From the NCBI GenBank assembly GCA_025456085.1, contig JALOLF010000084.1, positions 1 through 20,836 on the forward strand: a stretch of 20,836 nt of DNA, written 5' to 3'. Source of the stretch: Acidimicrobiales bacterium (lineage in GTDB: Bacteria; Actinomycetota; Acidimicrobiia; Acidimicrobiales; Acidimicrobilacustridaceae). The notes beneath the pieces are model-generated. The model had not been told where the DNA came from. It saw nothing but the letters and a program-made list of their open reading frames with translations, and searched no databases. A program made the translations under genes and the position numbers. Of the stretch, positions 1,125 to 15,889 are shown piece by piece. Position 1 is the stretch's first letter. Each line of letters begins with the position of its first letter.

Positions 1125-1634
1125 GTGGCCCTTGACGACCTCGCCGCCATCCGGCTCGTGCTGACCGACTTCGACGGCGTGCTCACCGACAACCGCGTGC
1201 TCGTCGACCAGGACGGCCGCGAGGCGGTGTTCTGCAACCGGGCCGACGGGCTCGGGTGCGACCTGCTGCGCGCCGCCGGCATCGAGGTGCTGATCGTGTC
1301 GACCGAGACGAACCCGGTGGTGGCGGCGCGTGCCCGCAAGCTGCGCGTCGGCGTGTTGCAGGCGGTCGACGACAAGGCCGCCGCGGTGGCCGGGCTGCTG
1401 GCCGAGCGGGGCCTGCGGCCCGAGGAGGCGCTGTTCATCGGGAACGACGTCAACGATCTCGGCGCCCTGACCACGGTCGGGGTGGCGGTGTGCCCGGCCG
1501 ACGCCCACGCCGACGTGCGGGCGGTGGCGGCGCACGTCACGGGGGCCGTCGGCGGCAGCGGCGTGCTGCGCGAGGTCACCGACCTCCTGCTGGCGGCACG
1601 CCGTGCCGCGACGCCTGACGGGACCGGCACATGA
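1125..1634 (+). CDS. HAD-IIIA phosphatase, KdsC family (ulosonic/nonulosonic acid phosphate phosphatase-like)
   Basis: In-frame GTG at 1125 with GGGAG at 1110-1114. The HAD motif I (LVLTDFDGVLTD) and the GNDVNDL motif match KDO-8-P, KDN-9-P and Neu5Ac-9-P phosphatases. The stop TGA 1632-1634 overlaps the next ATG (ATGA). The track ORF 474..1634 carries a junk N-terminal extension. Confidence 0.8.
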   Translation: MALDDLAAIRLVLTDFDGVLTDNRVLVDQDGREAVFCNRADGLGCDLLRAAGIEVLIVSTETNPVVAARARKLRVGVLQAVDDKAAAVAGLLAERGLRPEEALFIGNDVNDLGALTTVGVAVCPADAHADVRAVAAHVTGAVGGSGVLREVTDLLLAARRAATPDGTGT

Positions 1635-3556
1635 GCGCCGCGCCGCACTCGGCATCCGAGCCGACCCCGGGCGCCACTCCCGTCGGACGCCCCGAGCCAC
1701 CCCCGAGCACCACGCCCACCACAGACGCCGCGCGCGGCGATCGCGGCGATCACGGCGGCGGAACGCTCGAGGTGCTCGCGCTCGTCACCGCCCGCGGCGG
1801 CTCGAAGGGGCTACCCCGCAAGAACGTGATCCCGGTGCTCGGCCGGCCGCTCATCGTCTGGACCATCGGGGCGGCTCTGCGGGCCGAGACCGTCACCCGC
1901 GTCGTCGTGTCCACCGACGACGACGAGATCGCCGAGACGGCCCTGGCGGCGGGCGCCGAGGTGCCCTTCCGGCGGCCGGCGGACCTGGCCGGCGACACGG
2001 TGCGAGACCTGCCCGTGTTCCGCCACGCCCTCGAGTGGCTGCGCGACGCCGAGGGCTACACGCCCGACCTCGTGGTGCACCTGCGACCCACCTCCCCGGT
2101 GCGCCCGCCCGGCCTCGTCGACCGGGGCGTGCGCCGTCTGGCCGCCGAACCGGGGGCGGACTCCCTGCGGGTGGTCTGTGAGCCGGCGAACAATCCCTTC
2201 AAGATGTGGCGCATCGTCGACGACCGTCTCGTACCCCTCGTCGACTCGGGCATCCCCGAGCAGTACAACGAGCCCCGCCAGGCCCTGCCCACCGTCTACT
2301 GGCAGATCGGCGTGCTCGACGTCATCCGCCCCGCCACGATCCTCGAGCAGGGCTCCATGTCGGGCCGGGTGATCCTGCCGCTGGTGGTCGACGCCGCCCT
2401 GGCGGTGGACATCGACGACGCCTCCTCCATCCCCCGAGCCGAGGAGGCGCTGCCGAGGATCTCGCATGAAGCGCCGCCGCCGCTCGGCCGCCCCCCTCGC
2501 CGGGGAGGGCGCGTCGTGATCGCGGTGGTGGGCTCGGGCTCGGTGGCCCGCCGACACCTCACCAACCTGCTGGCCCTGGGCCGACGTGACCTGCTCGTGG
2601 TCAGCGAGCAGCGCACCGGCTCGTCGCTCGACCTCGACGGCGTCGAGGTCCCCCTGACCGCCGACCTCGACGACGCGCTCGAGCGGGCGACGGAGGGGGT
2701 GGTCGTGGCGAACGTGACCTCACGGCACCTCGACACAGCGGCCCGGGCCGTGCAGGCGGGTCGCCACGTGTACCTCGAGAAGCCGGCGTCGGTGTCGGCC
2801 CACGGCGTCGACGAGCTCGACGCCCTCGCCCGGGCACAGGGCGTGACCGTGGCCGTCGGCCAGCAGCTCCGCTTCCACCCGCTGGTGCTGGCACTGCGCG
2901 ACCTCGTGACCGGCGAGCGCCTGGGTCCCCTGCTGGCGGTGCAGGCCGAGCTGGGTGAGCACCTCGCCGACTACCACCCCGACGAGGACCACCGGCTCGG
3001 CTACGCCGCCCGACGCGAGCTGGGCGGCGGCGTGCTGCTCACCCAGATCCACCAGGTCAACGTGCTGCACTGGCTCCTGGGAGCCTTCGACACGGTGGTG
3101 GCCAGTGGTGGGAACACCGGCAGGCTCGGCATCGACGTGGAGGACACCGTCGACTACCTGGCCGTCCCCCGCAGCGATACCCCGGGCAGCGGCACCCCGG
3201 GCGGCGACGCGCCGACCCCGGGGCCGGTGGTGCACGGGCACCTCGACTACCTGCAACGCCCCAAGGTGTGGACCGTGACCGTCCTCGGCACGCTCGCTCG
3301 GGCACACCTCGACCTGCACGCCGGCACCCTCACCGTGCTCTCGCAGACCGGCACGGCCGACACCATCCCCGTCGAGCAGGACCGCAACGCCCTGTTCGTG
3401 GCCGCCCTGGAGGACTTCTTCGCTGCGCTCGCCGAGGGCCGGCCACCCCGGTGCACGCTGGCCGAGGCGACCACGGATCTCCGACTGGTCGACGCCATCC
3501 GTCGCTCGATGCGGTCGCACCAGGTCGAAGCGATCCAGCGCGAGGATGCGCCATGA
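1631..3556 (+). CDS. fusion protein: N-terminal CMP-sugar (acylneuraminate/Kdo-type) cytidylyltransferase domain + C-terminal Gfo/Idh/MocA-family NAD(P) oxidoreductase domain
   Basis: Single 641-aa frame with no internal stop. Residues around 50-275 carry LALVTARGGSKGLPRKNV..LGRPLI (CTP_transf_3, the NeuA/KdsB signature). Residues around 290-640 carry VVIAVVGSGSVARRHL...YLEKPASVS (Gfo/Idh/MocA Rossmann fold and EKP motif). ATGA overlap with the upstream gene. The roughly 45-aa Pro/Thr-rich N-terminus makes the start uncertain (alternative GTG at 1772). Confidence 0.8.
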   Translation: MSAAPHSASEPTPGATPVGRPEPPPSTTPTTDAARGDRGDHGGGTLEVLALVTARGGSKGLPRKNVIPVLGRPLIVWTIGAALRAETVTRVVVSTDDDEIAETALAAGAEVPFRRPADLAGDTVRDLPVFRHALEWLRDAEGYTPDLVVHLRPTSPVRPPGLVDRGVRRLAAEPGADSLRVVCEPANNPFKMWRIVDDRLVPLVDSGIPEQYNEPRQALPTVYWQIGVLDVIRPATILEQGSMSGRVILPLVVDAALAVDIDDASSIPRAEEALPRISHEAPPPLGRPPRRGGRVVIAVVGSGSVARRHLTNLLALGRRDLLVVSEQRTGSSLDLDGVEVPLTADLDDALERATEGVVVANVTSRHLDTAARAVQAGRHVYLEKPASVSAHGVDELDALARAQGVTVAVGQQLRFHPLVLALRDLVTGERLGPLLAVQAELGEHLADYHPDEDHRLGYAARRELGGGVLLTQIHQVNVLHWLLGAFDTVVASGGNTGRLGIDVEDTVDYLAVPRSDTPGSGTPGGDAPTPGPVVHGHLDYLQRPKVWTVTVLGTLARAHLDLHAGTLTVLSQTGTADTIPVEQDRNALFVAALEDFFAALAEGRPPRCTLAEATTDLRLVDAIRRSMRSHQVEAIQREDAP

Positions 3557-4404
3557 GCTCCGGGAGCACCGCCGACCTGTTCGACCTCACCGGGCGGCGC
3601 GCCATCGTGACCGGTGGGGCCGGCCTGCTCGGCCGGGTGTTCGCCCGGGCGCTGCTGGACGTGGGTGCCGAGGTGCACCACCTCGACCGGGACGAGGGCC
3701 GCCTCGAAGAGGTGCTCGCCGCACTGCCCGACGATCTGCGCCGCCGAGCCGTGGCCGTGCGCTGCGACCTCACCGACGAAGACGACGTCGAAGCCACCGT
3801 GGCTGCGCTCGCCCGCCAGGGACGCATCGACATCCTGGTCAACTCCGCTGCCATCGACCCCAAGTTCGACGGCACCGCGGCGGGCGGCGCCGGCCCCGAC
3901 GCGCCCGACGACGGCCATCTCACCCGCTATCCCGTCGATCGGTGGCGCCAGAGCCTCGAGGTGAACCTCACCGGCGTGTTCCTCATCACCCGATCGGTGT
4001 GCCGGGTCATGCAGACCCAGGGCGAACGGGGCGAGGGCACCGTCGTGAACCTGTGCTCGACCTACGGTCTGGTCGGTCCCGACCAGCGGATCTACGACGG
4101 GGCGCCCACCCCGTTCTTCAAGCCGGTCGACTACTCGGTCACCAAGGCCGGCCTGCTCGGCTTCACCCGGGCGGTGGCCTCCCTCTACCGGGACAGCGGC
4201 ATCCGGGTGAACGCCCTCAGCCCCGGCGGGGCCTTCGACGACCACGACCCGGCCTTCGTGGCCGCCTACTCGTACCGCACGATCACCGGACGCATGGCCG
4301 ACCCCGACGAGTATCGTGGCGCCATCGCGTTCCTGTGCAGCGACGCCTCCTCCTACATGACCGGCGCCAACCTGGTCGTCGACGGAGGCTGGACGGCCCT
4401 CTAG
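3553..4404 (+). CDS. short-chain dehydrogenase/reductase (classical SDR) oxidoreductase
   Basis: ATG 3553 overlaps the upstream TGA (ATGA). TGGAGLLG Rossmann motif, YSVTK catalytic Y-x3-K, and C-terminal NLVVDGGWTA. 283 aa. Confidence 0.85.
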   Translation: MSSGSTADLFDLTGRRAIVTGGAGLLGRVFARALLDVGAEVHHLDRDEGRLEEVLAALPDDLRRRAVAVRCDLTDEDDVEATVAALARQGRIDILVNSAAIDPKFDGTAAGGAGPDAPDDGHLTRYPVDRWRQSLEVNLTGVFLITRSVCRVMQTQGERGEGTVVNLCSTYGLVGPDQRIYDGAPTPFFKPVDYSVTKAGLLGFTRAVASLYRDSGIRVNALSPGGAFDDHDPAFVAAYSYRTITGRMADPDEYRGAIAFLCSDASSYMTGANLVVDGGWTAL

Positions 4405-4505: not shown

Positions 4506-5393
4506 ATGCTCATCGCCGAGGTGGGCTGCAACCACCTGGGTGATCTCGACGTGGCCAAGCGGTTTATCGAGGTGGCGACCTCCTTCTGCAACGTGACCAC
4601 CGTCAAGTTCCAGAAGCGCGACGTCGCCACCCTGCTGACCGAGGAGCAGCGCAACGCCCCCCACCCGGCGCCGCACAACTCCTACGGCCCCACCTACGGC
4701 GAGCATCGGGAGTTCCTGGAGCTCGACCTCGACCAGCACCGGGAGCTGAAGGAGGCGTGCGAAGCCCGCGGCGCCACCTACACCTGCTCGGTGTGGGACG
4801 CGCCCAGCTTCGAGGAGATCGCCTCGCTCGAACCCGAGCTGATCAAGATCCCGTCGGCCAGCAACACCAACCCCGACCTGCTGGAGGCGGCGTGCCGGCA
4901 CTTCCCCGGGCCGATCCACATCTCCCTCGGCATGACCACCCGCGCCGAGGAGGCCACCATCGTCGAGGTGTTCCGGCGTCACGGTCGCCTCGGCGACCTG
5001 GTGCTCTACGCCTGCACGTCGGGCTATCCGGTGCAGCCCGCCGAGGCCTACCTGCTGGAGATCCTGCGGCTGCGCGAGGCCTACGGCGCCGAGGTGGGGG
5101 GCATCGGCTACTCGGGACACCACAACGGGATCTCGCTCGACCTGGTGGCCTTCACCCTCGGCGCCGACTACCTGGAACGGCACTTCACCCTCGACCGGAC
5201 GTGGAAGGGCACCGACCACGCGGCCTCCCTCGAGCCCGACGGGCTGCGGCGCCTGCGCCGCGACCTGGACTACGCGGCGCAGGCGCTGCAGGCCCGGCCC
5301 ACCGAGATCGTGGAGGTGGAGCGCCCCCAGCGGGCGAAGCTCAAGTGGCTGCGGGGCAACGTGGGCGCGTCGCCGGCGGCGGGCTCGCACTGA
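4506..5393 (+). CDS. N-acylneuraminate (nonulosonic acid) synthase family protein, NeuB-like PEP-condensing TIM-barrel; C-terminal SAF/antifreeze-like domain apparently absent
   Basis: ATG 4506 gives MLIAEVGCNHLGD, the classic NeuB/PseI/LegI N-terminal motif, and the TIM-barrel body follows (KIPSASNTN, GYSGHH). The product is only about 295 aa and its C-terminal 50 aa do not resemble a SAF domain. An alternative upstream GTG lies near 4461. Confidence 0.8.
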   Translation: MLIAEVGCNHLGDLDVAKRFIEVATSFCNVTTVKFQKRDVATLLTEEQRNAPHPAPHNSYGPTYGEHREFLELDLDQHRELKEACEARGATYTCSVWDAPSFEEIASLEPELIKIPSASNTNPDLLEAACRHFPGPIHISLGMTTRAEEATIVEVFRRHGRLGDLVLYACTSGYPVQPAEAYLLEILRLREAYGAEVGGIGYSGHHNGISLDLVAFTLGADYLERHFTLDRTWKGTDHAASLEPDGLRRLRRDLDYAAQALQARPTEIVEVERPQRAKLKWLRGNVGASPAAGSH

Positions 5394-5420: not shown

Positions 5421-5433
5421 ACGGGAATCCCGT
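5421..5433. promoter_or_regulatory. 13-bp perfect palindrome ACGGGAATCCCGT upstream of the 5488 gene
   Basis: Seen directly: ACGGGA-A-TCCCGT, flanked by a CCGTGAC direct repeat. It shares the GGAATCC core with the 17-bp palindromes at 7407 and 7469. Confidence 0.3.
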
Positions 5434-5437
5434 GACA

Positions 5438-5479
5438 GGCACGCCGCGACCGGCACCTCCCGGCGGGCACGCCGCGACG
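5438..5479. repeat. direct repeat GGCACGCCGCGAC x2 (about 28-bp spacing) in the promoter region of the 5488 gene
   Basis: aGGCACGCCGCGACCGG at 5437-5453 and gGGCACGCCGCGACGG at 5465-5480, both within the 94-bp intergenic region. Confidence 0.35.
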
Positions 5480-5487
5480 GCGGCGCC

Positions 5488-7383
5488 GTGACCGAGACCC
5501 TGGTCCACCTCGACGTCGACCCCGCCGACGCCTCGCTGCTGGCGCTGCTGCGCGCCCGGGTGGGCGCCGGCGCGCGGCTCGCGGTCCCCGCCGGCACGGC
5601 ACTCGACGGGGAATGGGCCGGGCCGGTGGTGACGGTCACCGGCCGGGCCGCGTTCTCGATCCTCGACGACACGGACCGACTGGTCGAGACGCTCATCGAC
5701 ACCGCACGCACCCGGGGCGCGGACGAGGACCTGCTGGCCGCGCTGGAGGCGGCCCGCTTCCCCCTGGCCGTGGCGCTGGCACCGGACTGGCACCGCTGGC
5801 GGACCGTGAGCCGGCTCATCGCCGAGCACCGACCCCGGCGGCTGGTGGTGGTCTCGTCGTCGATGCGATCGCGTCGCGACGCCGCCCGGTTCGCCCGGTC
5901 GTTCCCGGGCGTGGCGGTGGAGGTGCTCGACGTCCGGACCCGCGGCGCCCGGCTGGAGCGCTGGCGGCAGCGGATCCACGCAGCCCGGGTGCACGCCGAG
6001 TCCCGGGTGCACGCCGAATCCGCCCGTGGCGGCGCGGCGCCCCACGACCGGCCCGTCGTGGCCTTCGTGGAGTTCTTCCCCAACAACCTCAAGGCGTCGC
6101 TGCCCGTGGCCGGGGCGCTGGCCGAGCACCACGGCCTGCGACCGATGTGGATCGCCTGCCGCCGGGCCGTCGTCGATGCGCTCGCCGACGCGGATGCCCT
6201 CGGGGGCACGCGCGCGACCGACGACGTGGTCACGGCGCCCGCGACGCTGGAGCTGCCGCCCGACCCGTTGCTCCACCGCGCCACCGCGCGGCGCCTCACC
6301 GCTGCCGGCCTGCGCGACGCGGTGCGCGCCTTCGCCACCGGGTTCCCACCCCCTCCCGGAACTCGGGCGGATGGATGCCGGAGACCGACCTCGGAGGACC
6401 CGATTTCGGAGCTTGTGCGGGCGGGGGCGCGGGCGCGGGCGGGGGTGGTGGACCCGTGGCTCGTGCCCACCGTGCGCCGTCATGCCGTCGTCACGGCGGC
6501 GGGCGGCGAGCGGTGGCGGCGCTGGCTCGCCGAGACGATCACCGGACTCGATGCCCGGCTCGTGGTCGTGACCACGCCCTACGACCTGACCGCTCGCGCC
6601 GGCGTCGTGGCAGCCCACCGCGTCGGTCTCCCCACGGCGTGGATCCAACACGGCATCTACAACCCCCGCCACGCCCACCGCAGCATCGACGTGGACCTGG
6701 CACTGCTGTGGGGCGAGTACGAGGCCGCCGACCTCCGGGACCGGCAGCCTCCGATCGGCGAGATCGCGGCGGTGGGCTCCCCGGTGCACGATCCCCTCGC
6801 CGTCCATCGAGCCGTGCGGGCGCAACGGCGCTTCCCCGCCGAGGGCGAGCCGCTGCGGGTGACCTATCTGGCCTCCCACTCACGGTGGTTCTACACGCTC
6901 GACGACGCGGCCCGGGCGACGTCGGTGGTGTGCGAGGCCGCGTCCCGGCTTCCCGACGTCGAGCTGACCGTCAAGTGCCATCCGCACGACGACACGGGCG
7001 TCCCCGAGGCCGCGGCGGGTCCCTTCCCGGGCGTCGTGGTGGTGCGCCATGGCGACAGCCGGGAGCTCACCGTCGCCTCCGACTTGGTGATCGTGCGGGA
7101 TTCGACAGCCGGCTACGAGGCCTGCATGGCCGACGTCGCGCTCCTGGAGCTCGAGATCGGCGAGCGGGTGCTCGACTTCTCCTACACCCACCTCGGAGCG
7201 GCCCGACCCGTGCGCAACGCCGACGACATCGTCGCTGCTGTGCGGGACCTGCGCGAGGACCCTGCGGCACGTGCGGCCCTCGCCGCGGGGCGGGAGCGGT
7301 TCCGGGTCCACCACCTCCACGGCGGCCACGGCGACGCCGCCACGACCGCCGCCGACCAGCTGGCGCGCCTCCTGACGCGCTGA
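5488..7383 (+). CDS. putative TagF/KpsC-like GT-B polymerase or transferase (K-x-HP motif); function unknown
   Basis: 631-aa frame with normal composition, whereas the overlapping alternate frames are Arg/Gly/Pro junk. The C-terminal third carries RVTYLASHSRWFYT ... LTVKCHPHDD ... DLVIVRDSTAGYEACMADVALLE. This resembles the acceptor-binding, HP and nucleotide-binding motifs of CDP-glycerol glycerophosphotransferases and KpsC/KpsS-like transferases. GTG start at 5488. Confidence 0.55.
   Translation: MTETLVHLDVDPADASLLALLRARVGAGARLAVPAGTALDGEWAGPVVTVTGRAAFSILDDTDRLVETLIDTARTRGADEDLLAALEAARFPLAVALAPDWHRWRTVSRLIAEHRPRRLVVVSSSMRSRRDAARFARSFPGVAVEVLDVRTRGARLERWRQRIHAARVHAESRVHAESARGGAAPHDRPVVAFVEFFPNNLKASLPVAGALAEHHGLRPMWIACRRAVVDALADADALGGTRATDDVVTAPATLELPPDPLLHRATARRLTAAGLRDAVRAFATGFPPPPGTRADGCRRPTSEDPISELVRAGARARAGVVDPWLVPTVRRHAVVTAAGGERWRRWLAETITGLDARLVVVTTPYDLTARAGVVAAHRVGLPTAWIQHGIYNPRHAHRSIDVDLALLWGEYEAADLRDRQPPIGEIAAVGSPVHDPLAVHRAVRAQRRFPAEGEPLRVTYLASHSRWFYTLDDAARATSVVCEAASRLPDVELTVKCHPHDDTGVPEAAAGPFPGVVVVRHGDSRELTVASDLVIVRDSTAGYEACMADVALLELEIGERVLDFSYTHLGAARPVRNADDIVAAVRDLREDPAARAALAAGRERFRVHHLHGGHGDAATTAADQLARLLTR
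5986..6021 (+). repeat. 18-bp tandem duplication inside the CDS (encodes RVHAES RVHAES)
   Basis: CGGGTGCACGCCGAGTCC followed by CGGGTGCACGCCGAATCC, one mismatch. Confidence 0.6.
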
Positions 7384-7642: not shown

Positions 7643-9115
7643 ATGCCGGACAAAGACGAGGCCTCCGAGCCGTCCCCGGGGGCGGGCCGTCCCGACGAGT
7701 CGCCGGGTGGCACCGCCGACGCACCCGCCACGCCCCCCACGCCACCGGCCCCGGCTGCGCAGACCCCGCCGACCGTCCCCCAGCCCCCCGCCCCCGCCCC
7801 CGCCGCAGCCGCGGCCGCGGCCGGCCCGACGCCAGAGGGCGAGCCCACAGCGCCCCCGGTGACCGCTCCCGCCGGCGACGCGTCCGGCCCGCAGGCGCCA
7901 ACCGAGCCGGGCGAGCAGCTCCCCCGTCCCAAGAAGAAGGCCGCCAAGAAGGCCGCTGCCAAGCGCACCGCTCCACTTCTGCACACCCCCGAGCCGCCCA
8001 CCACGGAGGTGCCACCGGTCAAGGTGAGCTGGCGGGGCATCGCCGACGACGCCCCCGAGAAGCCCGCCAAGCGCAGCGGCGTGCTGGCTGCGGTCGGCCG
8101 GGGCGTCGCCGCGCTCCTCGAGGCGATCGGCCTCAAGCGCAAGCGCAACGCCGACGGCAGCCTCCAGCCCCGTGCGTGGAAGCGGCTCGGCATCGTCGGC
8201 GGCAGCGCGGTGGTCGTGCTCTTCCTGTGGACGATGGTGCACATCGTGCCGGCCGGTTCGGTGGGCGTGCCCATCACCCTGGGCAAGGCCGGCGGCGAGC
8301 TGGGGCCGGGCCTGCAGCTCACCGTCCCCTTCACCCAGGTCAAGACGATGTCCACCCGGACCCAGAACTACACCATGACCGCCATCCAGGGCGAGGGCCA
8401 GTATGCCGGCGACGACTCCGTGGCCGTGCTGGGCCGCGACGGCGGCGCGGCCAACGTCGACGCCACCGTGCTGTTCCGCCTCGACCCCGGGGAGGCCACC
8501 CGGGTCTACGAAGAGGTCGGCACCGACTTCCCGACCAAGCTGGTGCGCCCCGCGGCGCGCACGTGCATCCGCGCCGCCTTCACCAAGTACGACATGGTCG
8601 AGGCCGCCACCAGCGCCTGGGAGCCCATGGCCGACGAGATCTCGGACTGCATGCGGGAACGGATCGAGCCCCGCGGCATCCAACTGCTGGACTTCCAGCT
8701 GCGTGAGGTCCGCCTGGCCGACCCGGTCCAGCAGGCCATCGACGCCAAGGTCGCCGCGCAGCAGCAGGCCGAGCGTCAGCGCTTCGAACGCCAGACGGCC
8801 GAGCAGCAGGCCGACATCTCCCGCATCAACGCCATCGCCACCGCCGACTCCCAGCAGATCCTGGCCTGTGGCGGCACCGTCACCACCGTCGAGAAGGACG
8901 GCCAGCAGGTGCAGGTGGTGACCCCCAACCCGACCGAGCAGTGCGACCAGGCCCAGCTCACCCCGCAGTACCTGCAGTACACCTACATCCAGGCGCTGAA
9001 GCAGCTCGTCGACTCGCCGAACAACTCGACCATCATCCTGCCGATGGACCAGAACCTGACGCCGCTGCTGAACATCGACGGCACCACGGCCACCACCACG
9101 GCGCCCGGCGGCTGA
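7643..9115 (+). CDS. SPFH/band-7 (prohibitin/HflC/flotillin-like) membrane protein with a long Pro/Ala/Thr-rich disordered N-terminal tail
   Basis: Strong RBS. About 190 aa of low-complexity sequence (PATPPTPPAPAAQTPP...KKKAAKKAAAKR) is followed by a TM helix (LGIVGGSAVVVLFLWTMV). The SPFH core (VPAGSVGVPITLGKAGGELGPGLQLTVPFTQVKTMSTRTQNYT ... VLFRLDP) and a Gln/Ala/Glu-rich coiled-coil C-terminal region follow. Confidence 0.85.
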   Translation: MPDKDEASEPSPGAGRPDESPGGTADAPATPPTPPAPAAQTPPTVPQPPAPAPAAAAAAAGPTPEGEPTAPPVTAPAGDASGPQAPTEPGEQLPRPKKKAAKKAAAKRTAPLLHTPEPPTTEVPPVKVSWRGIADDAPEKPAKRSGVLAAVGRGVAALLEAIGLKRKRNADGSLQPRAWKRLGIVGGSAVVVLFLWTMVHIVPAGSVGVPITLGKAGGELGPGLQLTVPFTQVKTMSTRTQNYTMTAIQGEGQYAGDDSVAVLGRDGGAANVDATVLFRLDPGEATRVYEEVGTDFPTKLVRPAARTCIRAAFTKYDMVEAATSAWEPMADEISDCMRERIEPRGIQLLDFQLREVRLADPVQQAIDAKVAAQQQAERQRFERQTAEQQADISRINAIATADSQQILACGGTVTTVEKDGQQVQVVTPNPTEQCDQAQLTPQYLQYTYIQALKQLVDSPNNSTIILPMDQNLTPLLNIDGTTATTTAPGG

Positions 9116-9140: not shown

Positions 9141-9180
9141 CCGGACGTCGGCGACCAGACGTCGACGACCGGACGTCGGC
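9141..9180. repeat. 12-bp perfect direct repeat CCGGACGTCGGC x2 with GACGTC palindromic cores
   Basis: Copies at 9141-9152 and 9169-9180, with GACCAGACGTCGACGA between them. The second copy abuts the wzt stop codon. Confidence 0.4.
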
Positions 9181-9974
9181 TACATGTCCTCGGCGGCGGT
9201 GGCCTCGTCGAGGACGCCCTCGAAGCGCAGGTAGGCGTCGACCACGTCGGGAGCGGGGCCCTCGGCCATCACCCGGCCCTTGTCGAGCCACAGGCACCGG
9301 TCGGCGAGCGACGAGATGATCCGCACGCCGTGGGTGATGATCATCACGGTGCAGTCGCGCTCGCACAGCTCGCTGATCTTGTCCGAGGACTTCTTCTTGA
9401 AGCGGGCGTCACCGGCGGCCAGAGCCTCGTCGATGAGCACGATCTCGGGGTCGAGGTGCACCGCGACTGCGAACCCGAGCCGGGCCGACATGCCCGAGGA
9501 GTAGGTGCGCATCGGGTAGTCGATGGCGTCGGCCAGCTCCGCGAAGGCCACGATGGCCTGGTACTGCTCCTGCACCTCCTCAGGGGCGAGGCCCATGGCC
9601 AACCCGCCGAGCAGCACGTTCTCGCGGCCGGTGAGCTCCCGGTTGAAGCCGATGCCGAGAGAGAACAGCGGCGTGACGTGGCCCCGCACGACGACACGAC
9701 CCTCGCTCGGGGTGAGGATGCCGCAGATGGTGCGGAACAACGTGGACTTGCCGGCGCCGTTGCGGCCGATCACGCCGCACACCGAGCCCCGCTGCACGGT
9801 GAAGCTCACCCCCCGCAGGGCCTCCACGTAGCGGGTCACCTTGCGTCGTTGGGTCATGCCCACGAGCGTGCGCTTGAGCGTGGCCTCCTGACTCGAGCGG
9901 TAACGCAGCCAGAGGTCCTGCACCTCGATGGTGGGTGGAACCGCCAGCGACGCGGTCTCAGAGTCGAACGGCAA
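9180..9974 (-). CDS. wzt: ABC transporter ATP-binding protein, polysaccharide/teichoic-acid exporter type (Wzt/TagH/KpsT-like), without a C-terminal carbohydrate-binding extension
   Basis: Walker A GRNGAGKST, signature YSSGMSARLGFA, Walker B IVLIDEALAAGD, and H-loop ITH, across 264 aa. TAG stop at 9180-9182. The start is probably TTG at 9972-9974 (first in-frame start), which would overlap the wzm end by 17 nt, so the start is uncertain. Confidence 0.88.
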   Translation of the reverse strand: MPFDSETASLAVPPTIEVQDLWLRYRSSQEATLKRTLVGMTQRRKVTRYVEALRGVSFTVQRGSVCGVIGRNGAGKSTLFRTICGILTPSEGRVVVRGHVTPLFSLGIGFNRELTGRENVLLGGLAMGLAPEEVQEQYQAIVAFAELADAIDYPMRTYSSGMSARLGFAVAVHLDPEIVLIDEALAAGDARFKKKSSDKISELCERDCTVMIITHGVRIISSLADRCLWLDKGRVMAEGPAPDVVDAYLRFEGVLDEATAAEDM

Positions 9975-10809
9975 GGTCCCGCTCCCGACGCAGGAAGTAG
10001 AAGGCCCCCAACCCGAAGACGGCGACCGCGAAGACGGTCATCATGAACAGGCCCTTGGCGGTGGGGCCGTGCCCGGTGAAGATCAGCTCCAGCGAACCCA
10101 GGAACCAGTACATGGGGTTCAGCTTGAGGTACGGGGCGATGTTGGGCGGCACCTCGGACACGGTGAACAGCACCGGCGACACGTACAGCCAGATGCGCGT
10201 GGCGTAGGGGAGGATGTCGGACGCGTCCCGGAAGAACACCGTGACGGTCGAGGCCAGCAGGGCCAGACCCAGGTTGAACATCGTCAACAGCACCAGGATC
10301 AACGGCAGCCACAACAGCGCGGCCGTGATGGGCTGGCCCAGCAGCACGTGCAGCCCCATGTACACGACGAAGGTGGGCAGGAAGTCGAGGAAGGCCTCGA
10401 TCACGGCCACCAGGGGGAACACCAAGCGGGGCAACGAGGAGTTGAGCACGGTGTTGCGGTTGGACAGGATCGCCTTCGTCCCGCCCATGAGCGACGCCCG
10501 GGTGTAGCCGAAGAAGAACACGGCCATGATGAGGTGGGCGAGCAGCGCGTTGCGCTCGGCATCGGTGCCGATGGGACGCACCACGGTGCGCAGCAGGTAG
10601 TAGACCGCCGCCTCGAGGAGCGGATCGAGCACGATCCAGGCCTGGCCGATGACCGTGTCGTAGTGCTGCGCCTTTAGCTCGCTGCGCGACAGGTGCCACA
10701 TGAAGGCCCGGCGACCCCAGATCTCGCGCAGGTAGCGGTGCAGCGGCGGCAGACCGGTGTCGGTGGGCTCGTAGACGTGGACGGTGGGAGACGACGAGGG
10801 CTCGGCCAT
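9958..10809 (-). CDS. wzm: ABC-2 type polysaccharide exporter permease (Wzm/TagG/KpsM-like)
   Basis: About six hydrophobic TM segments (LLAHLIMAVFFFGY, LVFPLVAVIEAFLDFLPTFVVYMGL, ALLWLPLILVLLTMFNLGLALL, MMTVFAVAVFGLGAFYF). I chose the internal ATG (MAEPSSS, complement 10807-10809) over the track start at 10902, whose first 31 aa look like a non-coding extension. Confidence 0.82.
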   Translation of the reverse strand: MAEPSSSPTVHVYEPTDTGLPPLHRYLREIWGRRAFMWHLSRSELKAQHYDTVIGQAWIVLDPLLEAAVYYLLRTVVRPIGTDAERNALLAHLIMAVFFFGYTRASLMGGTKAILSNRNTVLNSSLPRLVFPLVAVIEAFLDFLPTFVVYMGLHVLLGQPITAALLWLPLILVLLTMFNLGLALLASTVTVFFRDASDILPYATRIWLYVSPVLFTVSEVPPNIAPYLKLNPMYWFLGSLELIFTGHGPTAKGLFMMTVFAVAVFGLGAFYFLRRERDLAVRL

Positions 10810-10903
10810 GGGGTGCACTGGCCCCGACCGGCTCGGCGCGCGGGCCAGCCGGGGAGGAGGGGTGGAGGTACGGTCAGGGTAGCCAACCGGGAGACCACGC
10901 ACG

Positions 10904-10922
10904 GGCCGGTTCGGGACCGGCC
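10904..10922. promoter_or_regulatory. 19-bp inverted repeat GGCCGGT-tcggg-ACCGGCC in the divergent wzm / lipoprotein intergenic region
   Basis: 7-bp perfect arms with a 5-bp spacer, about 95 bp upstream of the wzm start and 100 bp upstream of the lipoprotein gene start. Confidence 0.3.
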
Positions 10923-11021
10923 GCGAGCCTCCGATCGGCTGGGGTCGGCTAGGTTACGCGTTCAACGACGTCCGTCGCGCCGAGTCCCGCGCTCGATCCG
11001 GCACGCAGGAGATCCGATTCC

Positions 11022-11864
11022 GTGAAACGACCCCGCTCGGCACTGCTGCTCGCGCTCCGACTGCTGTTGGCGTGCACCGTGCTGTTGGCGGTTGCCGGGT
11101 GCAGCGACGACGAGGAGCCGACGTCGTCCGGCTCCCGGGGCACCGCCAGCGACGCCGCAACCAAGCCCACGGTCGGCGCCGGCGACCGGGCGACCACGGT
11201 GACCATCTACGCACCCGACCAGCTCCAGCGGGCCATGAACGAGCTCAAGGGCGGGTTCGAGTTCCTGACCGAGTACACCGTCGTGATCACGCAGGGCTCC
11301 GAGACCGACCTCATCGCCGGTGTGCAGGGCGGCGACCGACCCAACCTGCTCGTCGCCGACACCACCGAGCTCATGCCCCTCGTCGACAACGGCACGATCA
11401 TCGCCACCCCCACCGACTTCGGCACCGATCCCCTGCTGATGTTGACCGCCAAGGGCAACCCCGAGGGCGTCCCGGCGCAGATCGGGGTCTTCGGCGAGGG
11501 AAGCGCCTTCGTGACCGGCCTGTGCGCGCCGGACGTGCCGTGCGGCGCCGCGGCGCAGTCCGTGTTGCAGCAGGCCGGCGTCACACCAGCAGCCGACACC
11601 GTGGAGCCCACGGGTCGCCGACTCACCGACAATGTGGCCAAGGGCAAGGTCGACGTGGCGCTGGTGTTCCGCAGCGACTACATGAACCGGTTCTTCCGGA
11701 CCGGCGCGCTGGCGGATCCCGACTTCGCGCCCTACGTGATCACCTACGACATCGGCACCATCGAGGAGACCGACGCCTCCAAGGCCTTCCTCGAGTTCCT
11801 GGGCTCGATCGCCGGCCGCACGATCCTCGTGCAGCGGGGCCTCCTCCCGCTCGGCTCGGTGTGA
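11022..11864 (+). CDS. ModA/WtpA-like oxyanion (molybdate/tungstate/sulfate family) periplasmic-binding lipoprotein
   Basis: GTG start with AGGAGA at 11007-11012. Signal peptide plus lipobox LAVAG-C. The mature protein aligns by eye to ModA: VTIYAPDQL (like ITVFAAASL), GDRPNLLVADT (like GAPADLFISAD), KVDVALVFRSDY (like LGIVYGSDA), and a SKAFLEFL C-terminal segment. Confidence 0.7.
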   Translation: MKRPRSALLLALRLLLACTVLLAVAGCSDDEEPTSSGSRGTASDAATKPTVGAGDRATTVTIYAPDQLQRAMNELKGGFEFLTEYTVVITQGSETDLIAGVQGGDRPNLLVADTTELMPLVDNGTIIATPTDFGTDPLLMLTAKGNPEGVPAQIGVFGEGSAFVTGLCAPDVPCGAAAQSVLQQAGVTPAADTVEPTGRRLTDNVAKGKVDVALVFRSDYMNRFFRTGALADPDFAPYVITYDIGTIEETDASKAFLEFLGSIAGRTILVQRGLLPLGSV

Positions 11865-11877
11865 GCACCGGCCGCTG

Positions 11878-12870
11878 ATGGGGACCGACTCAGCCGCGCT
11901 GGCGGGCCGAACCGCCGTGTGCGTCACCGGCATGCACCGCAGCGGCACCTCCTTCGCGACCCGGGCCGTGCAGTTGCTGGGCGTGTCGTTGGGAGACCCC
12001 GAGCGCCTCATGCCGCCGGGACGGGACAACCCGAGGGGCTACTTCGAGAACGCCCGCGTCAAGGAGCTCGACGACGAGATCCTCGCCCACCTCGACGGAT
12101 CGTGGGACGCCCCACCGGTGCTGGCACCGGGCTGGGAGCTCGACGCGGGCCTCGACGAGCTGCGGGCACGGGCGGCAGCCGAGCTGGCCGAGACCTTCGC
12201 CGCCACGCCCCCCGGTGAGCCCATCGGCTGGAAGGACCCCCGGCTGTCGCTGCTCCTGCCCCTGTGGCGCACCGTCTCGCCCATCTCCACCACCATCGTG
12301 GTGGTGCGCGACCCGGCCGAGGTGGCGGCGTCGCTGCACACCCGCAACGGCATGCCCCCGGCGCAGGCTGCCCTGCTGTGGTTGCGCTACCTGCTGGCGG
12401 CCACCACGAACGATCCCGGCCACCTGCTGGTGCGTCACCGGGACTTCTTCGAAGACCTCCCGACCACGCTGGCCCGCATCGCCACCCACCTCGCCCTGCC
12501 CGCACCGGACGAAGCGACGCTCGAGGCGGTGCGCGGCCACCTCGACCCGTCGCTGCACCACCACGACAACCGACGCTCCACCCAAGCCGCGTCCGCGCCG
12601 GCTGCCACCGCCCCGGCGGAGTCCGACCCGGCTGGAGCCGACCCGGTGACCCGTCTGGCGACGCAGGTGTGGAACGGCGGCGACGTCGACGTGACGCTGG
12701 TGCCCGAGCCGATGGCCGCCGCCGTCCGGGAGGGGTGGTTGCGACCGCCCGTCGACGGCGAGGCCTTGGCCCGGGCGCGGGCCAAGGTGGTGGAGCTCAC
12801 CGAGGAGATCCGCCGTCGCAACCGGGAGAAGGCCGCGGCCAGGGCCGCGGCCCGGGGCGGGACGGGGTGA
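11878..12870 (+). CDS. sulfotransferase family protein (Sulfotransfer_3/Stf0-like; PAPS-dependent)
   Basis: 5'-phosphosulfate-binding P-loop VTGMHRSGTSF and the GWKDPRLS motif. 330 aa. ATG 11878 lies 13 nt after the lipoprotein stop. Confidence 0.75.
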   Translation: MGTDSAALAGRTAVCVTGMHRSGTSFATRAVQLLGVSLGDPERLMPPGRDNPRGYFENARVKELDDEILAHLDGSWDAPPVLAPGWELDAGLDELRARAAAELAETFAATPPGEPIGWKDPRLSLLLPLWRTVSPISTTIVVVRDPAEVAASLHTRNGMPPAQAALLWLRYLLAATTNDPGHLLVRHRDFFEDLPTTLARIATHLALPAPDEATLEAVRGHLDPSLHHHDNRRSTQAASAPAATAPAESDPAGADPVTRLATQVWNGGDVDVTLVPEPMAAAVREGWLRPPVDGEALARARAKVVELTEEIRRRNREKAAARAAARGGTG

Positions 12871-13742
12871 GCGACGCCCCGCAGCTGGTGCACCCCGAGG
12901 GCTGGGTCCTGGACTGGATCACCCGGGACCGGCTCGCCCGACAGCTGCGCAGGGCGGATCCCGCCGTCGACGGCATCGTGGCGCCAGCGACCGAACTTCC
13001 CGCCGGTGCGTCGTTCCGGGTCCACGCCGAGCGGTGCGCCCTGCGGCCCGTGGACGCGCTCGAGCCACTGGGGTCGGCCACGACGGCCGACGCCACCTCG
13101 GTGCGCGGCGCGCTGCTGGTGCGACCCGGCGTGCGGTGCACGGTCGAGGGCGACGTCGTCGCTGCGCCCGGCGCCCACCTGCTGGTCGATCCCGGTACCC
13201 ACGCCCACGACCCCTGGCAGCCGCCCACGGCGCTGGTCGACGCCTCGCCCGCGGCCCGGCCGCCGTTCCCGTGGCGACCGGTCGTGGCGGTGGTGGTGTG
13301 CGGCCCGGACCCCGATCCCGACCGGCTCGACTGGGCCCGCTCGATGGTCAACGCCCTGCTACGCCGCGACGTCGAGGGCCGGCTCGCCGTGACCGCCGCG
13401 CCCGAGGGGCTGCACCTCACCCGCCCCTGTCTGGCCTCACCGGCCTCGCTCGAGGCCCTCGCCCCCGACGTGGTGGTGGCGGCCGACGACGCGGCGCGGG
13501 AGGCCGCTCCGGGGTGGTGCCGACGCCGCTCGACCGTGGTGGTCGAGGTGGCCGACGATCCCCTGCTCGGCGTCGAGCTGGTTTCGTGGCGGCTGGGTCG
13601 AGCCCAGGGCCGACTGCGGGCCCGGATCGGGGAGCGGGTGGCACCGGCGACGGTGGCCGACCTGGCCCGCCGCCTGAGTGCCGGACCCCAGCCCGAACCA
13701 CCGCAGCCCAAACCCGCGCTGCGGGCGGTGGCCGAGCCGTGA
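12867..13742 (+). CDS. hypothetical protein (no recognisable domain)
   Basis: 291-aa frame bounded by GTGA overlaps at both ends (12867-12870 and 13739-13742) and sandwiched inside the coupled operon. Typical high-GC composition. The competing minus-strand ORF 12797..14941 is Gly/Arg/Ser low-complexity junk. Confidence 0.5.
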   Translation: MSDAPQLVHPEGWVLDWITRDRLARQLRRADPAVDGIVAPATELPAGASFRVHAERCALRPVDALEPLGSATTADATSVRGALLVRPGVRCTVEGDVVAAPGAHLLVDPGTHAHDPWQPPTALVDASPAARPPFPWRPVVAVVVCGPDPDPDRLDWARSMVNALLRRDVEGRLAVTAAPEGLHLTRPCLASPASLEALAPDVVVAADDAAREAAPGWCRRRSTVVVEVADDPLLGVELVSWRLGRAQGRLRARIGERVAPATVADLARRLSAGPQPEPPQPKPALRAVAEP

Positions 13743-15889
13743 GCACCGCCACCCCCGTGACCGTGGTGGTGCCCGTCTACCGGGGCCTCGACGACGTGCG
13801 GGCCTGCCTGGCCAGCCTGCGACGCCACGCCGCGGGATGCGCCACCGACCACGACGTGCTGCTCATCGACGACGCCTCGCCCGAACCGGGCATGGCCGCC
13901 CTGCTCGACGGCCTGGCCGGCGGAGCGACCGGCGGCCCGACGGTGCGGGTGCTGCACAACGCGCAGAACCTCGGTTTCGCGGGCACCGTCAACCGGGGCT
14001 TCGCCGAGTCCGACGGCGACGTGGTGGTGCTCAACGCCGACACCGTCGTCACCGCCGGCTGGCTCGACCGTCTCGCGGCCACGGCCGCCACGGCCACCGA
14101 CGTCGCCACGGTGACGCCGCTGACCAACGCCGGGTCCATCTGCACGGTGCCCCGGGCGGTCATCGCCACCTTCGACCTCGACGGGGACCAGCCCCGCATC
14201 GACGACTGCGCCGCCCACGTGGCGGCCGAGTCGCTGAACCTGCGGCCGGCGGTCATCACCGGGGTGGGGTTCTGCCTGTACGTCACCCGGGCCGCGCTCG
14301 ACGACGTCGGCCCCTTCGACGCCGAGACCTTCGCAGCCGGCTACGGAGAGGAGGTGGACTTCTGCCTGCGGGCCGGCGCCCGGGGCTGGCGGCACCTGGT
14401 GGACGACGCCACCTTTGTCTTCCACCGCCAGGGTGGCTCGTTCGGCGCAGCCCGCGACGAGCGACGCGCCACCAGCGCCGCCCTGCTGCACCAGCGGTAC
14501 CCCACCTTCGGGGCCGAGAACGCCGCCGAACGGGCCCGGGACCCGCTGGCCGTGCCGTTCGCGGCCCTGGAGCTGGGCCTGCACCGCCGGCGTCCCGACC
14601 GGCCCCTGGTGCTGCACCTGCTGCACAACTCCCCCGAGGAGCTGGGCGGCACCGAGACCCACCTGCGCACCCTCGTGGAGGCGCTGTGGCAGGAGTTCGA
14701 CGTCGCGGTGCTGCACCCGGTGCGCGGCGGTTTCGTCCTGCGGATCACCTTCGAGGACCGCCACGGCACCCGCGCCGAGCAGGAGCTCCACCTGCCCGGC
14801 GCACCCGAGCTCGACGCGCCGGCCGGCACCGGGGGACCCGCCGGGGAGGAGGTGCTCGACGAGCACGCAGCCGAGGCCCTGCGCCTGGCGCTGGCGCTGG
14901 AGGACGTGGCCGCCGTGCACCTGCAGAACCTGGTGGGCCACTCGTTGGCGCCGCTAGCGGTGCTGGCCGACTTCCCCGGTCCGGTGGTGTGCTCGGTGCG
15001 CGACCTGTACCTGGCCTGCCCCCACCACTGGCTGCTCTACCGCAACGCCGAGCCGTGCGGCATCCCCGAGGACCGCTCGCTGTGCGCCCGGTGCCTGCCG
15101 GAGGCCAAGGGCCTCCCGGTCGAGTACCTGGAGACCTTCCGCGACACGGTGACCCGCTGGCTCGACACCGTCGACCACTGGGTCTTCTCCACCAGGAGTG
15201 CCGCCGACTACTTCGCCCGGGTCTACGACGTGCCCGAGGAACGGGTGCAGCTCATCCCCCACGGCGCCACCATCCCCCTCGGCCCCCGAGATGGCGACGC
15301 CGACCTGCCTGACACGGACGCCGTGCTCACTGGTCCGCTGCGCCTGGCCTTCGTGGGTCGGGGGTGGGCCAAGAAGGGGCTGGGCGTCGTCAACCACCTG
15401 GTGGCCGACCTGGCAACCATGGACGAAGACGCTGTCGACGTGGAGGTGCACCACTTCGGCGAGCTGCGCGAGGCCGCCCACCCCGATCTGGTCCTGCACG
15501 GCACCTACGACAACCGGGACCTCCCCGGTCTGCTGCACCGCGCCGGCATGCACGTGGTGCTGTTGCCCGGCCCCTACGCCGAGACCTTCGGCCACGTGAT
15601 GACCGAGGCGCTGGTGGCCGGCCTGCCGGTGATCGGCGCCGGCTACGGAGCGTTGGGCGAACGCATCCGGGCCGAGGCGGTGGGCTGGACCATCGAGCCC
15701 ACCGACGCCGACGGGGTGCGCGACCTGGTGGTGAACCTGGCCCGCTGCCGCCCGGAGGTGCGCCGAGCCACCCGCCAGGCCCGACGCGTCGCGCTGCGAA
15801 CCGTCGCCGAGACCGCGGATCGCTACGCTGCCCTCTACCGCGCGCCGGCCCCGGCGGGGCGCGAACCCACGTGGGAAGCGACGACGTGA
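13739..15889 (+). CDS. bifunctional glycosyltransferase: N-terminal GT2 (GT-A) domain + C-terminal GT4/GT1 (GT-B) domain
   Basis: VTVVVPVYRG...LLIDDASPE...VLNADTV (GT2 DxD region) and, at the C-terminus, ETFGHVMTEALVAGLPVIGAGYGALGERI (the GT4 E-x7-E-like motif). 716 aa. The GTG start overlaps the upstream TGA. Confidence 0.85.
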   Translation: MSTATPVTVVVPVYRGLDDVRACLASLRRHAAGCATDHDVLLIDDASPEPGMAALLDGLAGGATGGPTVRVLHNAQNLGFAGTVNRGFAESDGDVVVLNADTVVTAGWLDRLAATAATATDVATVTPLTNAGSICTVPRAVIATFDLDGDQPRIDDCAAHVAAESLNLRPAVITGVGFCLYVTRAALDDVGPFDAETFAAGYGEEVDFCLRAGARGWRHLVDDATFVFHRQGGSFGAARDERRATSAALLHQRYPTFGAENAAERARDPLAVPFAALELGLHRRRPDRPLVLHLLHNSPEELGGTETHLRTLVEALWQEFDVAVLHPVRGGFVLRITFEDRHGTRAEQELHLPGAPELDAPAGTGGPAGEEVLDEHAAEALRLALALEDVAAVHLQNLVGHSLAPLAVLADFPGPVVCSVRDLYLACPHHWLLYRNAEPCGIPEDRSLCARCLPEAKGLPVEYLETFRDTVTRWLDTVDHWVFSTRSAADYFARVYDVPEERVQLIPHGATIPLGPRDGDADLPDTDAVLTGPLRLAFVGRGWAKKGLGVVNHLVADLATMDEDAVDVEVHHFGELREAAHPDLVLHGTYDNRDLPGLLHRAGMHVVLLPGPYAETFGHVMTEALVAGLPVIGAGYGALGERIRAEAVGWTIEPTDADGVRDLVVNLARCRPEVRRATRQARRVALRTVAETADRYAALYRAPAPAGREPTWEATT

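Follow-up and report, generated by a model that had tools for sequence, protein, structure and literature searches.

Which enzyme uses the nonulosonic acid, activated with cytidine monophosphate (CMP), whose synthesis genes are clustered on contig JALOLF010000084.1 of an uncultured Acidimicrobiales bacterium? On this contig, which was analyzed over its complete length of 20,836 bp and is hereafter referred to as the window, genes encoding a phosphatase, a cytidylyltransferase, a GFO/IDH/MocA oxidoreductase, an SDR oxidoreductase and a NeuB-family synthase are directly followed by a gene for a 631-aa protein (5488–7383, forward strand), as pointed out in a first-pass annotation made from the sequence. 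The gene is real, its product has a GT-B fold as well as conserved motifs that align to KpsC and KpsS in their CMP-binding core, and its neighborhood with genes for NeuB and a CMP-synthetase is conserved. The encoded protein, a putative CMP-nonulosonate glycosyltransferase, probably acts as an inverting transferase on the CMP-activated ulosonic acid supplied by the adjoining genes.

Coding Sequence and Copies of the Gene

At the G+C content of the window (73%), the third-position profile picks a single reading frame per gene. The frame spanning 5422–7383 on the forward strand shows G+C contents of 0.80, 0.56 and 0.91 at the first, second and third codon positions, respectively, representing the coding signature of DNA of this composition. 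Its first start codon is the GTG at 5488, resulting in a product of 631 aa with the stop codon at 7381–7383. This start is considered right, since the N-terminus of the deduced protein matches those of its homologues residue for residue in the alignment. The same 631-aa product, with zero differences, is encoded on two metagenome contigs of the Joint Genome Institute (L013 and L014), which together with the third-position signature confirms the gene as originally delineated. Neighboring genes of the window correspond to NCBI proteins MCU0269964-69 by exact sequence match. Scored with the hidden Markov model (HMM) of its family, the protein reached 470.9 bits and was the sole match among the proteins of the window, i.e., no second copy was present. 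A hydrophobic segment long enough for a transmembrane helix was not found in it (highest 19-residue hydropathy of 1.26).

A truncated version of the gene was encountered on contig JAOQIA010000810.1 (L012) of the metagenome-assembled genome (MAG) GCA_025491015.1. This contig ends in a 99-nt inverted copy (12411–12509) of window positions 7041–7139, which are located inside the gene, and the coding sequence is thereby cut to a 484-aa call. The terminal repeat looks like a fold-back assembly artefact.

Family Affiliation and Distant Relatives

Comparison of the protein with Pfam yielded nothing significant, the top match being Epimerase_2 (E 0.02; 14.2 bits versus a gathering cut-off of 30.6). 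Glyphos_transf (PF04464) and Capsule_synth (PF05159), the two families that had been suggested for comparison in the first-pass annotation, gave no match at E ≤ 10, and the protein is a member of neither. Within NCBIfam, TIGR04396 ('surface carbohydrate biosynthesis protein') was matched with E 7.5e-10 (38.5 bits versus a 125-bit cut-off) and NF046086 (BFO_1060 family glycosyltransferase) with E 2.2e-6 (27 versus 200 bits), both matches being confined to the C-terminal 150 residues. Relatives examined individually likewise scored at most 47.4 bits for these two models, which is under the curated cut-offs.

An exhaustive HMMER search over 1.84 billion cluster representatives returned 664 relatives at E ≤ 1e-3, including 31 at E ≤ 1e-30. 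The best of them are just 33–39% identical to the protein. Since most relatives are about 600 aa long and were matched in two stretches, they appear to share its architecture. Those looked up are metagenome singletons named 'hypothetical protein', with P0013 carrying the one other name, assigned by NCBI, namely CDP-glycerol:poly(glycerophosphate) glycerophosphotransferase. Word-indexed protein searches started from the protein or from the family alignment produced no match, versus the 664 obtained by exhaustive HMMER; this type of search may systematically overlook Ala/Arg-rich low-complexity proteins encoded in high-GC genomes. Moreover, phmmer searches of PDB sequences with the protein and with P0013 revealed nothing meaningful, and tblastn against plasmids gave no match for the protein.

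In order to characterize the family as a whole, 63 aligned members were each scanned individually against the model libraries. All 63 matched TIGR04396 (best E 3.1e-25) and 59 matched the BFO_1060 model (best E 4.6e-32). Capsule_synth, the family of KpsC and KpsS, was matched by 44 members at E ≤ 0.01 (best E 4e-8), Epimerase_2 by 31 (best E 1.5e-17) and the TagF family Glyphos_transf, weakly, by 13 (best E 9e-12). Among the seven closest relatives, five exceeded the gathering score of Capsule_synth (21.2–30.6 bits versus 20) and none reached the cut-offs of Epimerase_2 or Glyphos_transf; for the latter family, the close relative P0012 attained 18.4 bits versus 22.1. Similarity to the TagF, KpsC and sialyltransferase group of GT-B enzymes, the absence of which would have spoken against the first-pass proposal, was thus found at family level in the form of the KpsC and Capsule_synth matches. 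Judged by these profile comparisons, the protein belongs to an uncharacterized and sparsely populated family with kinship to both TIGR04396 and BFO_1060.

The BFO_1060 orthologues Tanf_01245 and TFUB4_00887 of Tannerella forsythia are genetically required for the transfer of a terminal pseudaminic acid (Pse) or legionaminic acid (Leg) derivative to the O-glycan (PMC5420450). With the BFO_1060 and TIGR04396 proteins, the family studied here shares the C-lobe HMM similarity, an HP motif, adjoining CMP-nonulosonate genes and the lack of a transmembrane segment. However, the match spans only about 115–160 residues of the protein at scores far under the curated cut-offs, and the family members are considerably longer (about 600 versus about 365–445 aa), adding a helical insertion and, at the N-terminus, a domain of 186 aa. 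The D/E-D/E-G motif of the Tannerella enzymes is not conserved in the family, and the donor is probably a deaminated acid resembling ketodeoxynononic acid (Kdn) rather than Pse or Leg.

Conserved Residues and Alignment with KpsC and KpsS

The three motifs quoted in the first-pass annotation are present at aa 459–467, 495–502 and 534–554. Their conservation was determined from an alignment of 106 full-length family members. Motif 1, TYLASHSRW (6862–6888, forward strand, as for all motifs given here), had been regarded as an acceptor motif. This interpretation does not hold, as the motif occupies strand 1 of the C-terminal lobe, which binds the donor, plus the loop after that strand, and is poorly conserved: only A462 and S463 show moderate conservation (60%), and H464, R466 and W467 are particular to the protein.

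In contrast to motif 1, motifs 2 and 3 coincide with the functional core of the family, since the protein retains every conserved core residue. Motif 2, VKCHPHDD (6970–6993), corresponds to K-x-H-P-x-D/E, with K496 and H498 each in 102/106, P499 in 103/106 and D/E501 in 98/106 homologues, and is a proposed contact of the CMP phosphate, i.e., of the leaving group. Motif 3, VIVRDSTAGYEACMADVALLE (7087–7149), represents, according to conservation and alignments, an S-T-x-G-x-E-A nucleotide-binding loop and the adjoining helix of the C-lobe; S539 is kept in 103, T540 in 98, E544 in 92 and A545 in 101 of the sequences. Accordingly, K496, H498, P499, S539, T540, E544 and A545 are 87–97% conserved, and VKCHP and DSTAGYEA coincide with the most conserved columns of the family. 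A further motif, Q387-H388-G389 (6646–6654), together with W408-G409, had been overlooked. It is the most conserved motif of the N-lobe (Q387 in 101, H388 in 98 and G389 in 100 homologues) and contains H388, the proposed general base. In total, the family core comprises Q387-H388-G389, W408-G409, G430, D435, K496-x-H498-P499-x-D/E501, D532 and S539-T540-x-G542-x-E544-A545, all of which are kept in the protein.

The K-x-H-P motif is very unlikely to have arisen by chance, because the protein has only two lysines, one of which is K496; about 0.005 chance matches are expected from the residue frequencies. These two lysines, versus 78 arginines, are K202 (6091–6093) and K496 (6973–6975). K496 is 96% conserved, and K202, in the FPNxxK loop following N-lobe strand 1, is Lys or Arg in 42/106 homologues. 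Lysine is apparently kept only where function needs it.

When the family profile was compared with PDB sequences, KpsC was the best match (E 4e-5), with VKxHP placed on VKVHP and SSTTGxEA on TSQYGFEA. Furthermore, profile alignments were computed by means of hhalign with partner sequences drawn from E. coli genomes. The alignment with KpsC reached 94.3% (E 1e-7) over 74 columns, again placing VKxHP on VKVHP and STxGxEA on SQYGFEA, and that with KpsS 91.5% over 66 columns, with K-x-H-P on KHHPMD and S-T-x-G-x-E-A on NSTAGISA. KpsC and KpsS are retaining β-Kdo transferases (PF05159, GT107; Kdo, ketodeoxyoctonic acid) that use a CMP-activated ulosonic acid as donor, as is proposed for the protein, and their K-x-H-P and S/T-x-x-G-x-E/S-A motifs correspond to those of the family. 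The similarity is limited to the 66–74 columns of the CMP-binding core. Kinship with the GT38 polysialyltransferase NeuS (0.9% over 34 columns) and with NeuE (DUF6716; 0.2% over 73 columns) was rejected, and the D/E-D/E-G motif of GT-B sialyltransferases (GT38, GT52 and GT80) is not conserved in the family.

Predicted Structure

The AlphaFold2 model, calculated from an alignment of 63 sequences, was predicted with high confidence (mean local confidence pLDDT 89.2; global template-modeling score pTM 0.90). It shows two Rossmann-like lobes, with the C-terminal helix running back to the N-lobe, as expected for a GT-B enzyme. The first-pass annotation had assigned no family to the N-terminal 300 or so residues. 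This statement remains valid for aa 1–186 (5488–6045), which form an extra Rossmann-like alpha/beta domain conserved in the family (E87, R90 and R103), for which no specific match was found. Conversely, aa ~190–450 (6055–6837) represent the N-terminal Rossmann lobe of the GT-B fold, as deduced from the secondary structure of the model and from the hhalign alignment to WecB, which covers aa 342–629. A helical insertion at aa ~250–353 of this lobe contains a stretch (289–306) that is disordered in the model. The C-terminal lobe is predicted to comprise aa 456–631, closing in the usual returning helix.

Ranking of solved folds placed UDP-N-acetylglucosamine (UDP-GlcNAc) 2-epimerase first (25.1), followed by MurG (23.3), NeuC (23.1), TagF (20.3), TarL (20.0), WaaA (18.5) and a polysialyltransferase (17.6). 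KpsC was absent from the first 60 fold-search matches of the model. According to the model, the fold is canonical GT-B and nearest to the 2-epimerase or MurG type among solved structures, and the predicted fold ranking by itself does not point to CMP- or CDP-dependent families. The layout likened to TagF and KpsC in the first-pass annotation is therefore partly supported: the K-x-H-P motif and the nucleotide loop align with KpsC and KpsS, but the KpsC nucleophile is absent and the nearest fold is that of a 2-epimerase.

Homologue Loci

Six loci with usable flanks, out of the 664 family representatives, were available for reading the neighborhood of homologues, namely L001 (a Planctomycetia MAG), L002 (an Acidobacteria MAG), L005, L006/L007, L008 and L009. 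In all six, a NeuB gene and a CTP_transf_3 gene are located within 10 kb of the homologue. The complete set of GFO oxidoreductase, SDR, CMP-synthetase, HAD phosphatase and NeuB genes occurs in L001 (2808–6718) and L008 (3585–7470), and part of it in L002 (40–2152) and L009 (554–2687). Furthermore, a Wzx flippase gene (Polysacc_synt) adjoins the homologue in four of the six loci, whereas the window features an ABC-2 exporter instead.

In the recurrent set, a NeuB without SAF domain is thus accompanied by a GFO oxidoreductase, an SDR and a phosphatase of the KdsC-like or HAD type, which in some cases is fused to the CMP-synthetase. The set has the appearance of a conserved nonulosonate pathway variant that is as yet undescribed.

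Proposed Function and Reaction

Transfer of the CMP-activated ulosonic acid, as put forward in the first-pass annotation, is the explanation best supported by the TIGR04396 and BFO_1060 matches, the alignment of the KpsC core and the gene content of the six homologue loci. The assignment as a CMP-nonulosonate transferase is favored because the protein is a predicted GT-B enzyme whose K-x-H-P and S-T-x-G-x-E-A donor site resembles that of the CMP binders KpsC and KpsS, because it is significantly homologous to the nonulosonate transferases of Tannerella, and because the conserved H388 is located at the end of a strand of the N-lobe and adjoins Q387, which aligns with the presumably catalytic E117 of WecB. 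Moreover, none of the other window proteins matched the family or any CMP-dependent glycosyltransferase family in Pfam and NCBIfam scans and in the search with the family HMM.

From these observations we infer the identity of the donor, the roles of individual residues, the stereochemistry and the acceptor. The protein would act as a soluble or peripheral glycosyltransferase in the cytoplasm. The CMP-nonulosonic acid synthesized via the five genes immediately upstream would serve as donor, the sugar probably being Kdn-like and formed via a phosphorylated intermediate, and would be moved onto a hydroxyl group of a lipid-linked glycan acceptor. By homology, the C-terminal Rossmann lobe is predicted to bind CMP, with E544 gripping the ribose hydroxyls and S539, T540 and K496 holding the phosphate and possibly the carboxylate. 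Likewise, H498 of the K-x-H-P motif would stabilize or protonate the phosphate of the leaving CMP, and H388 of Q-H-G would deprotonate the acceptor hydroxyl for a single-displacement, i.e., inverting, attack on C2. By analogy, H388 appears to be placed like the base histidines H444 of TagF and H300 of TarL (PMC10901376). The extra N-terminal domain (aa 1–186) may be involved in holding the acceptor chain or in oligomerization. Finally, the polymer could be extended by the neighboring GT2 and GT4 enzymes, perhaps be sulfated, and be exported by the adjacent ABC-2 transporter.

Several points weigh against this interpretation. The closest solved folds are UDP-GlcNAc 2-epimerases, not transferases, and an epimerase of this type also gave the profile alignment of greatest length (269 columns). 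The protein stays below every curated threshold, matching no Pfam family and attaining 38.5 of 125 bits for TIGR04396 and 27 of 200 bits for BFO_1060, and there is no experimental study of any member of the ~600-aa family. In addition, the catalytic role suggested for H388 is drawn solely from its position and conservation, and one of three open reading frames (ORFs) of the window that match no family could be the real transferase.

Alternative Functions

Instead of adding a single residue, the enzyme might be a polymerase that processively adds CMP-nonulosonate to build a poly-ulosonic chain resembling teichulosonic acid, with the N-terminal domain acting as in TagF-like polymerases. TagF-like polymerases have an additional N-terminal domain of variable fold that is missing from single-addition TagF-like enzymes (PMC10901376), and an extra N-terminal domain is also present in the protein. 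Moreover, the cluster of the window encodes an ABC-2 exporter, the typical route for polymers completed in the cytoplasm, and the host belongs to the Acidimicrobiales and thus to the actinobacteria, a phylum known for teichulosonic acids (PMC11481543). However, the Wzx flippase beside the homologue in four of the six loci implies one addition per repeat unit and therefore argues against polymerization, and these Wzx-associated homologues carry the same N-terminal domain. Nothing in the sequence separates processive from single transfer, and no polymer structure is available for the organism. Polymerization is therefore regarded as unlikely. A wider proposal, which is speculative and considered doubtful, would be that the ~600-aa family represents new CAZy-level CMP-nonulosonate transferases for an undescribed Kdn-like sugar produced by the recurrent set of SAF-less NeuB, KdsC-like phosphatase, GFO oxidoreductase and SDR, the N-terminal domain binding the growing acidic chain. 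In Acidimicrobiales, the enzyme would then be the polymerase of a possibly sulfated wall polymer of the teichulosonic type, exported by the ABC transporter.

The fold search favored an epimerase or hydrolase of the UDP-GlcNAc 2-epimerase, NeuC and PseG group, which would act on a nucleotide sugar of the donor pathway. In the Foldseek search, the top 40 matches were all 2-epimerases, with E values down to 1e-11, and the hhalign alignment with WecB reached 94.9% over 269 columns. About half of the scanned relatives also matched Epimerase_2 (31/63, best E as given above), and neither a NeuC nor a PseG gene is present in the window. Like WecB, MnaA and NeuC, the protein has a histidine at the equivalent phosphate-binding position and a loop of the D-S-x-G-x-x-E-A type, its motif 3 aligning with DSGGIQEEA of WecB. 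However, D95, E117 and E131 of WecB, which we take to be the catalytic residues, are replaced in the alignment by P364 (Tyr, Asp or Glu in the family), Q387 (Gln in 101/106 homologues) and V402, respectively, and the HRRE loop of the epimerases is absent, A-S-R-T-G-G taking its place in the family. This reading was rejected, since the catalytic carboxylates are not kept. Furthermore, the Epimerase_2 scores of the protein and of its close relatives remain under the gathering cut-off, and L005 already holds two genuine Epimerase_2 genes beside the homologue. A synthase paired with a KdsC-like phosphatase would also be expected to use a sugar phosphate from central metabolism and to need no hydrolase for nucleotide sugars. 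Given the missing carboxylates and the genuine epimerase genes in L005, an epimerase or hydrolase function has little probability.

Compared with the CMP-nonulosonate transferase function preferred here, a TagF-like CDP-polyol phosphotransferase would make a classical teichoic-acid linkage and not a glycosidic bond. In addition to the NCBI name of P0013 and the weak Glyphos_transf matches in 13 of the 63 relatives, the arrangement of histidines is in line with this function. TagF and TarL (PF04464) also release CMP and feature two invariant catalytic histidines, one following an N-lobe strand (TagF H444, TarL H300) and another in the C-lobe (TarL H433) (PMC10901376), the latter in an HP motif, and the polymerase members share an extra N-terminal domain with the protein. 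In the family, the candidate counterparts are H388 in the N-lobe (92% conserved) and H498 in the C-lobe (96%), and the PDB match of the family profile to TarL covers the C-lobe only. However, the protein itself has no PF04464 match and P0012 remains below the cut-off of that family, its N-lobe motif reads Q-H-G and not W-H-G, and amphipathic membrane helices as in TagF and TarL were not detected in the protein at its maximum 19-residue hydropathy of 1.26. Gene content is also at variance with a CDP-polyol substrate: no glycerol-3-phosphate or ribitol-5-phosphate cytidylyltransferase and no ribulose-5-phosphate reductase, and hence no supply of CDP-glycerol or CDP-ribitol, were found among the genes of the window, the sole cytidylyltransferase of which is of the CMP-nonulosonate type (PseF-like), and all six homologue loci encode NeuB and a CMP-nonulosonate synthetase instead. 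A phosphotransferase of this kind is accordingly rated as quite improbable.

Least probable is a retaining ulosonic-acid transferase of the KpsC, KpsS or KpsS1 type that operates via a covalent aspartyl-sugar intermediate: KpsC and KpsS gave the best PDB sequence match as well as hhalign matches, and close relatives pass the Capsule_synth cut-off, but the alignment is limited to the CMP-binding core, the canonical GT-B fold differs from that of the β-Kdo glycosyltransferases, which have been characterized as departing radically from it (PMC10148158), and the QxxxD motif of GT107 and GT99, which in KpsC provides the aspartate nucleophile (D160) just after C-lobe strand 1 (PMC10148158), is absent from the family. 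The loop in question reads A462-S-H-S-R-W467 in the protein versus A-S-R-T-G-G in the family consensus and contains no conserved acidic residue, its placement relative to QxxxD being based on the secondary structure of the model in a region that the hhalign alignment does not reach. Owing to the missing nucleophile, double displacement is unlikely for the protein and the KpsC-like covalent mechanism was rejected.

Significance of the Candidate Enzyme

Few transferases are available for bacterial nonulosonic acids such as Pse, Leg, Kdn and related sugars, as opposed to the biosynthetic pathways, which are well known (PMC5420450), and newly characterized nonulosonate transferases each founded a CAZy family, namely GT107, GT118 and GT140 (PMC10148158, PMC12887879). 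The protein is of moderate interest because such transferases are few and sought after. It represents a lead to a scarce enzyme class and no new kind of biological system. As a candidate from an uncultured actinobacterial lineage it is testable, given that its model is of high confidence, that the residues to be mutated are few and that its neighborhood is kept across three phyla. If the proposed function is true, several hundred proteins that are 'hypothetical' or misnamed could be annotated more easily, and a further tool for glyco-engineering with Kdn-like sugars would be added.

Surrounding Genes of the Window

All genes of the synthesis cluster are encoded on the forward strand. The HAD hydrolase at 1125–1634 resembles KdsC and Kdn-9-phosphate phosphatases (NCBIfam, E 3.5e-31 and 2.9e-27, respectively, both below cut-off) and is also called in L012. 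It is followed by a single ORF of 641 aa (1631–3556) comprising the CMP-nonulosonate cytidylyltransferase and the GFO/IDH/MocA oxidoreductase (Pfam CTP_transf_3 and GFO_IDH_MocA; PseF E 9e-33). The SDR oxidoreductase (3553–4404; adh_short_C2, E 1e-41) may belong to the donor-sugar pathway or serve in modification. The 295-aa NeuB-family nonulosonate synthase (4506–5393; Pfam NeuB, E 1.4e-59) is without SAF domain and 100% identical to the 295-aa protein P0152; like the hydrolase, it is also called in L012.

The 641-aa ORF originates from a deletion. After position 2451, the window is without 16 bp (CGTCGCGTTGGGCATC) that are present in two other assemblies of the locus (L012 and L013), in which the cytidylyltransferase (284 aa) and the oxidoreductase (346 aa) are separate genes. 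On the contig of the window, the NCBI product call for the fused region has a length of 594 aa. The deletion results from either strain variation or misassembly.

Downstream of the candidate transferase gene, the window encodes an SPFH protein, an ABC-2 exporter pair, a solute-binding protein, two sulfotransferase-like proteins, two GT2+GT4 fusions and three proteins of no family. The SPFH/Band-7 protein, located directly downstream (7643–9115, forward strand), comprises 490 aa with an N-terminal extension of about 200 aa. Such a protein is unexpected in a glycan cluster, and none occurs in the homologue loci, in which the homologue is usually followed by a gene for a methyltransferase or a GT4 enzyme. 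The three ORFs of no family (12870–13742, 15886–16857 and 17603–19282, forward strand; 290, 323 and 559 aa) show clear coding third-position G+C and no Pfam or NCBIfam match, and lie between the glycosyltransferase and sulfotransferase genes. The sulfotransferase-like genes (11878–12870 and 16854–17606, forward strand) are found beside the ABC-2 exporter pair (9180–10953, reverse strand) and the gene for an SBP_bac_11 protein (11022–11864, forward strand). The SBP_bac_11 family includes binders of sulfate, molybdate and similar compounds. The glycopolymer that is exported may carry sulfate groups, which in a wall polymer of actinobacteria would be an unusual feature.

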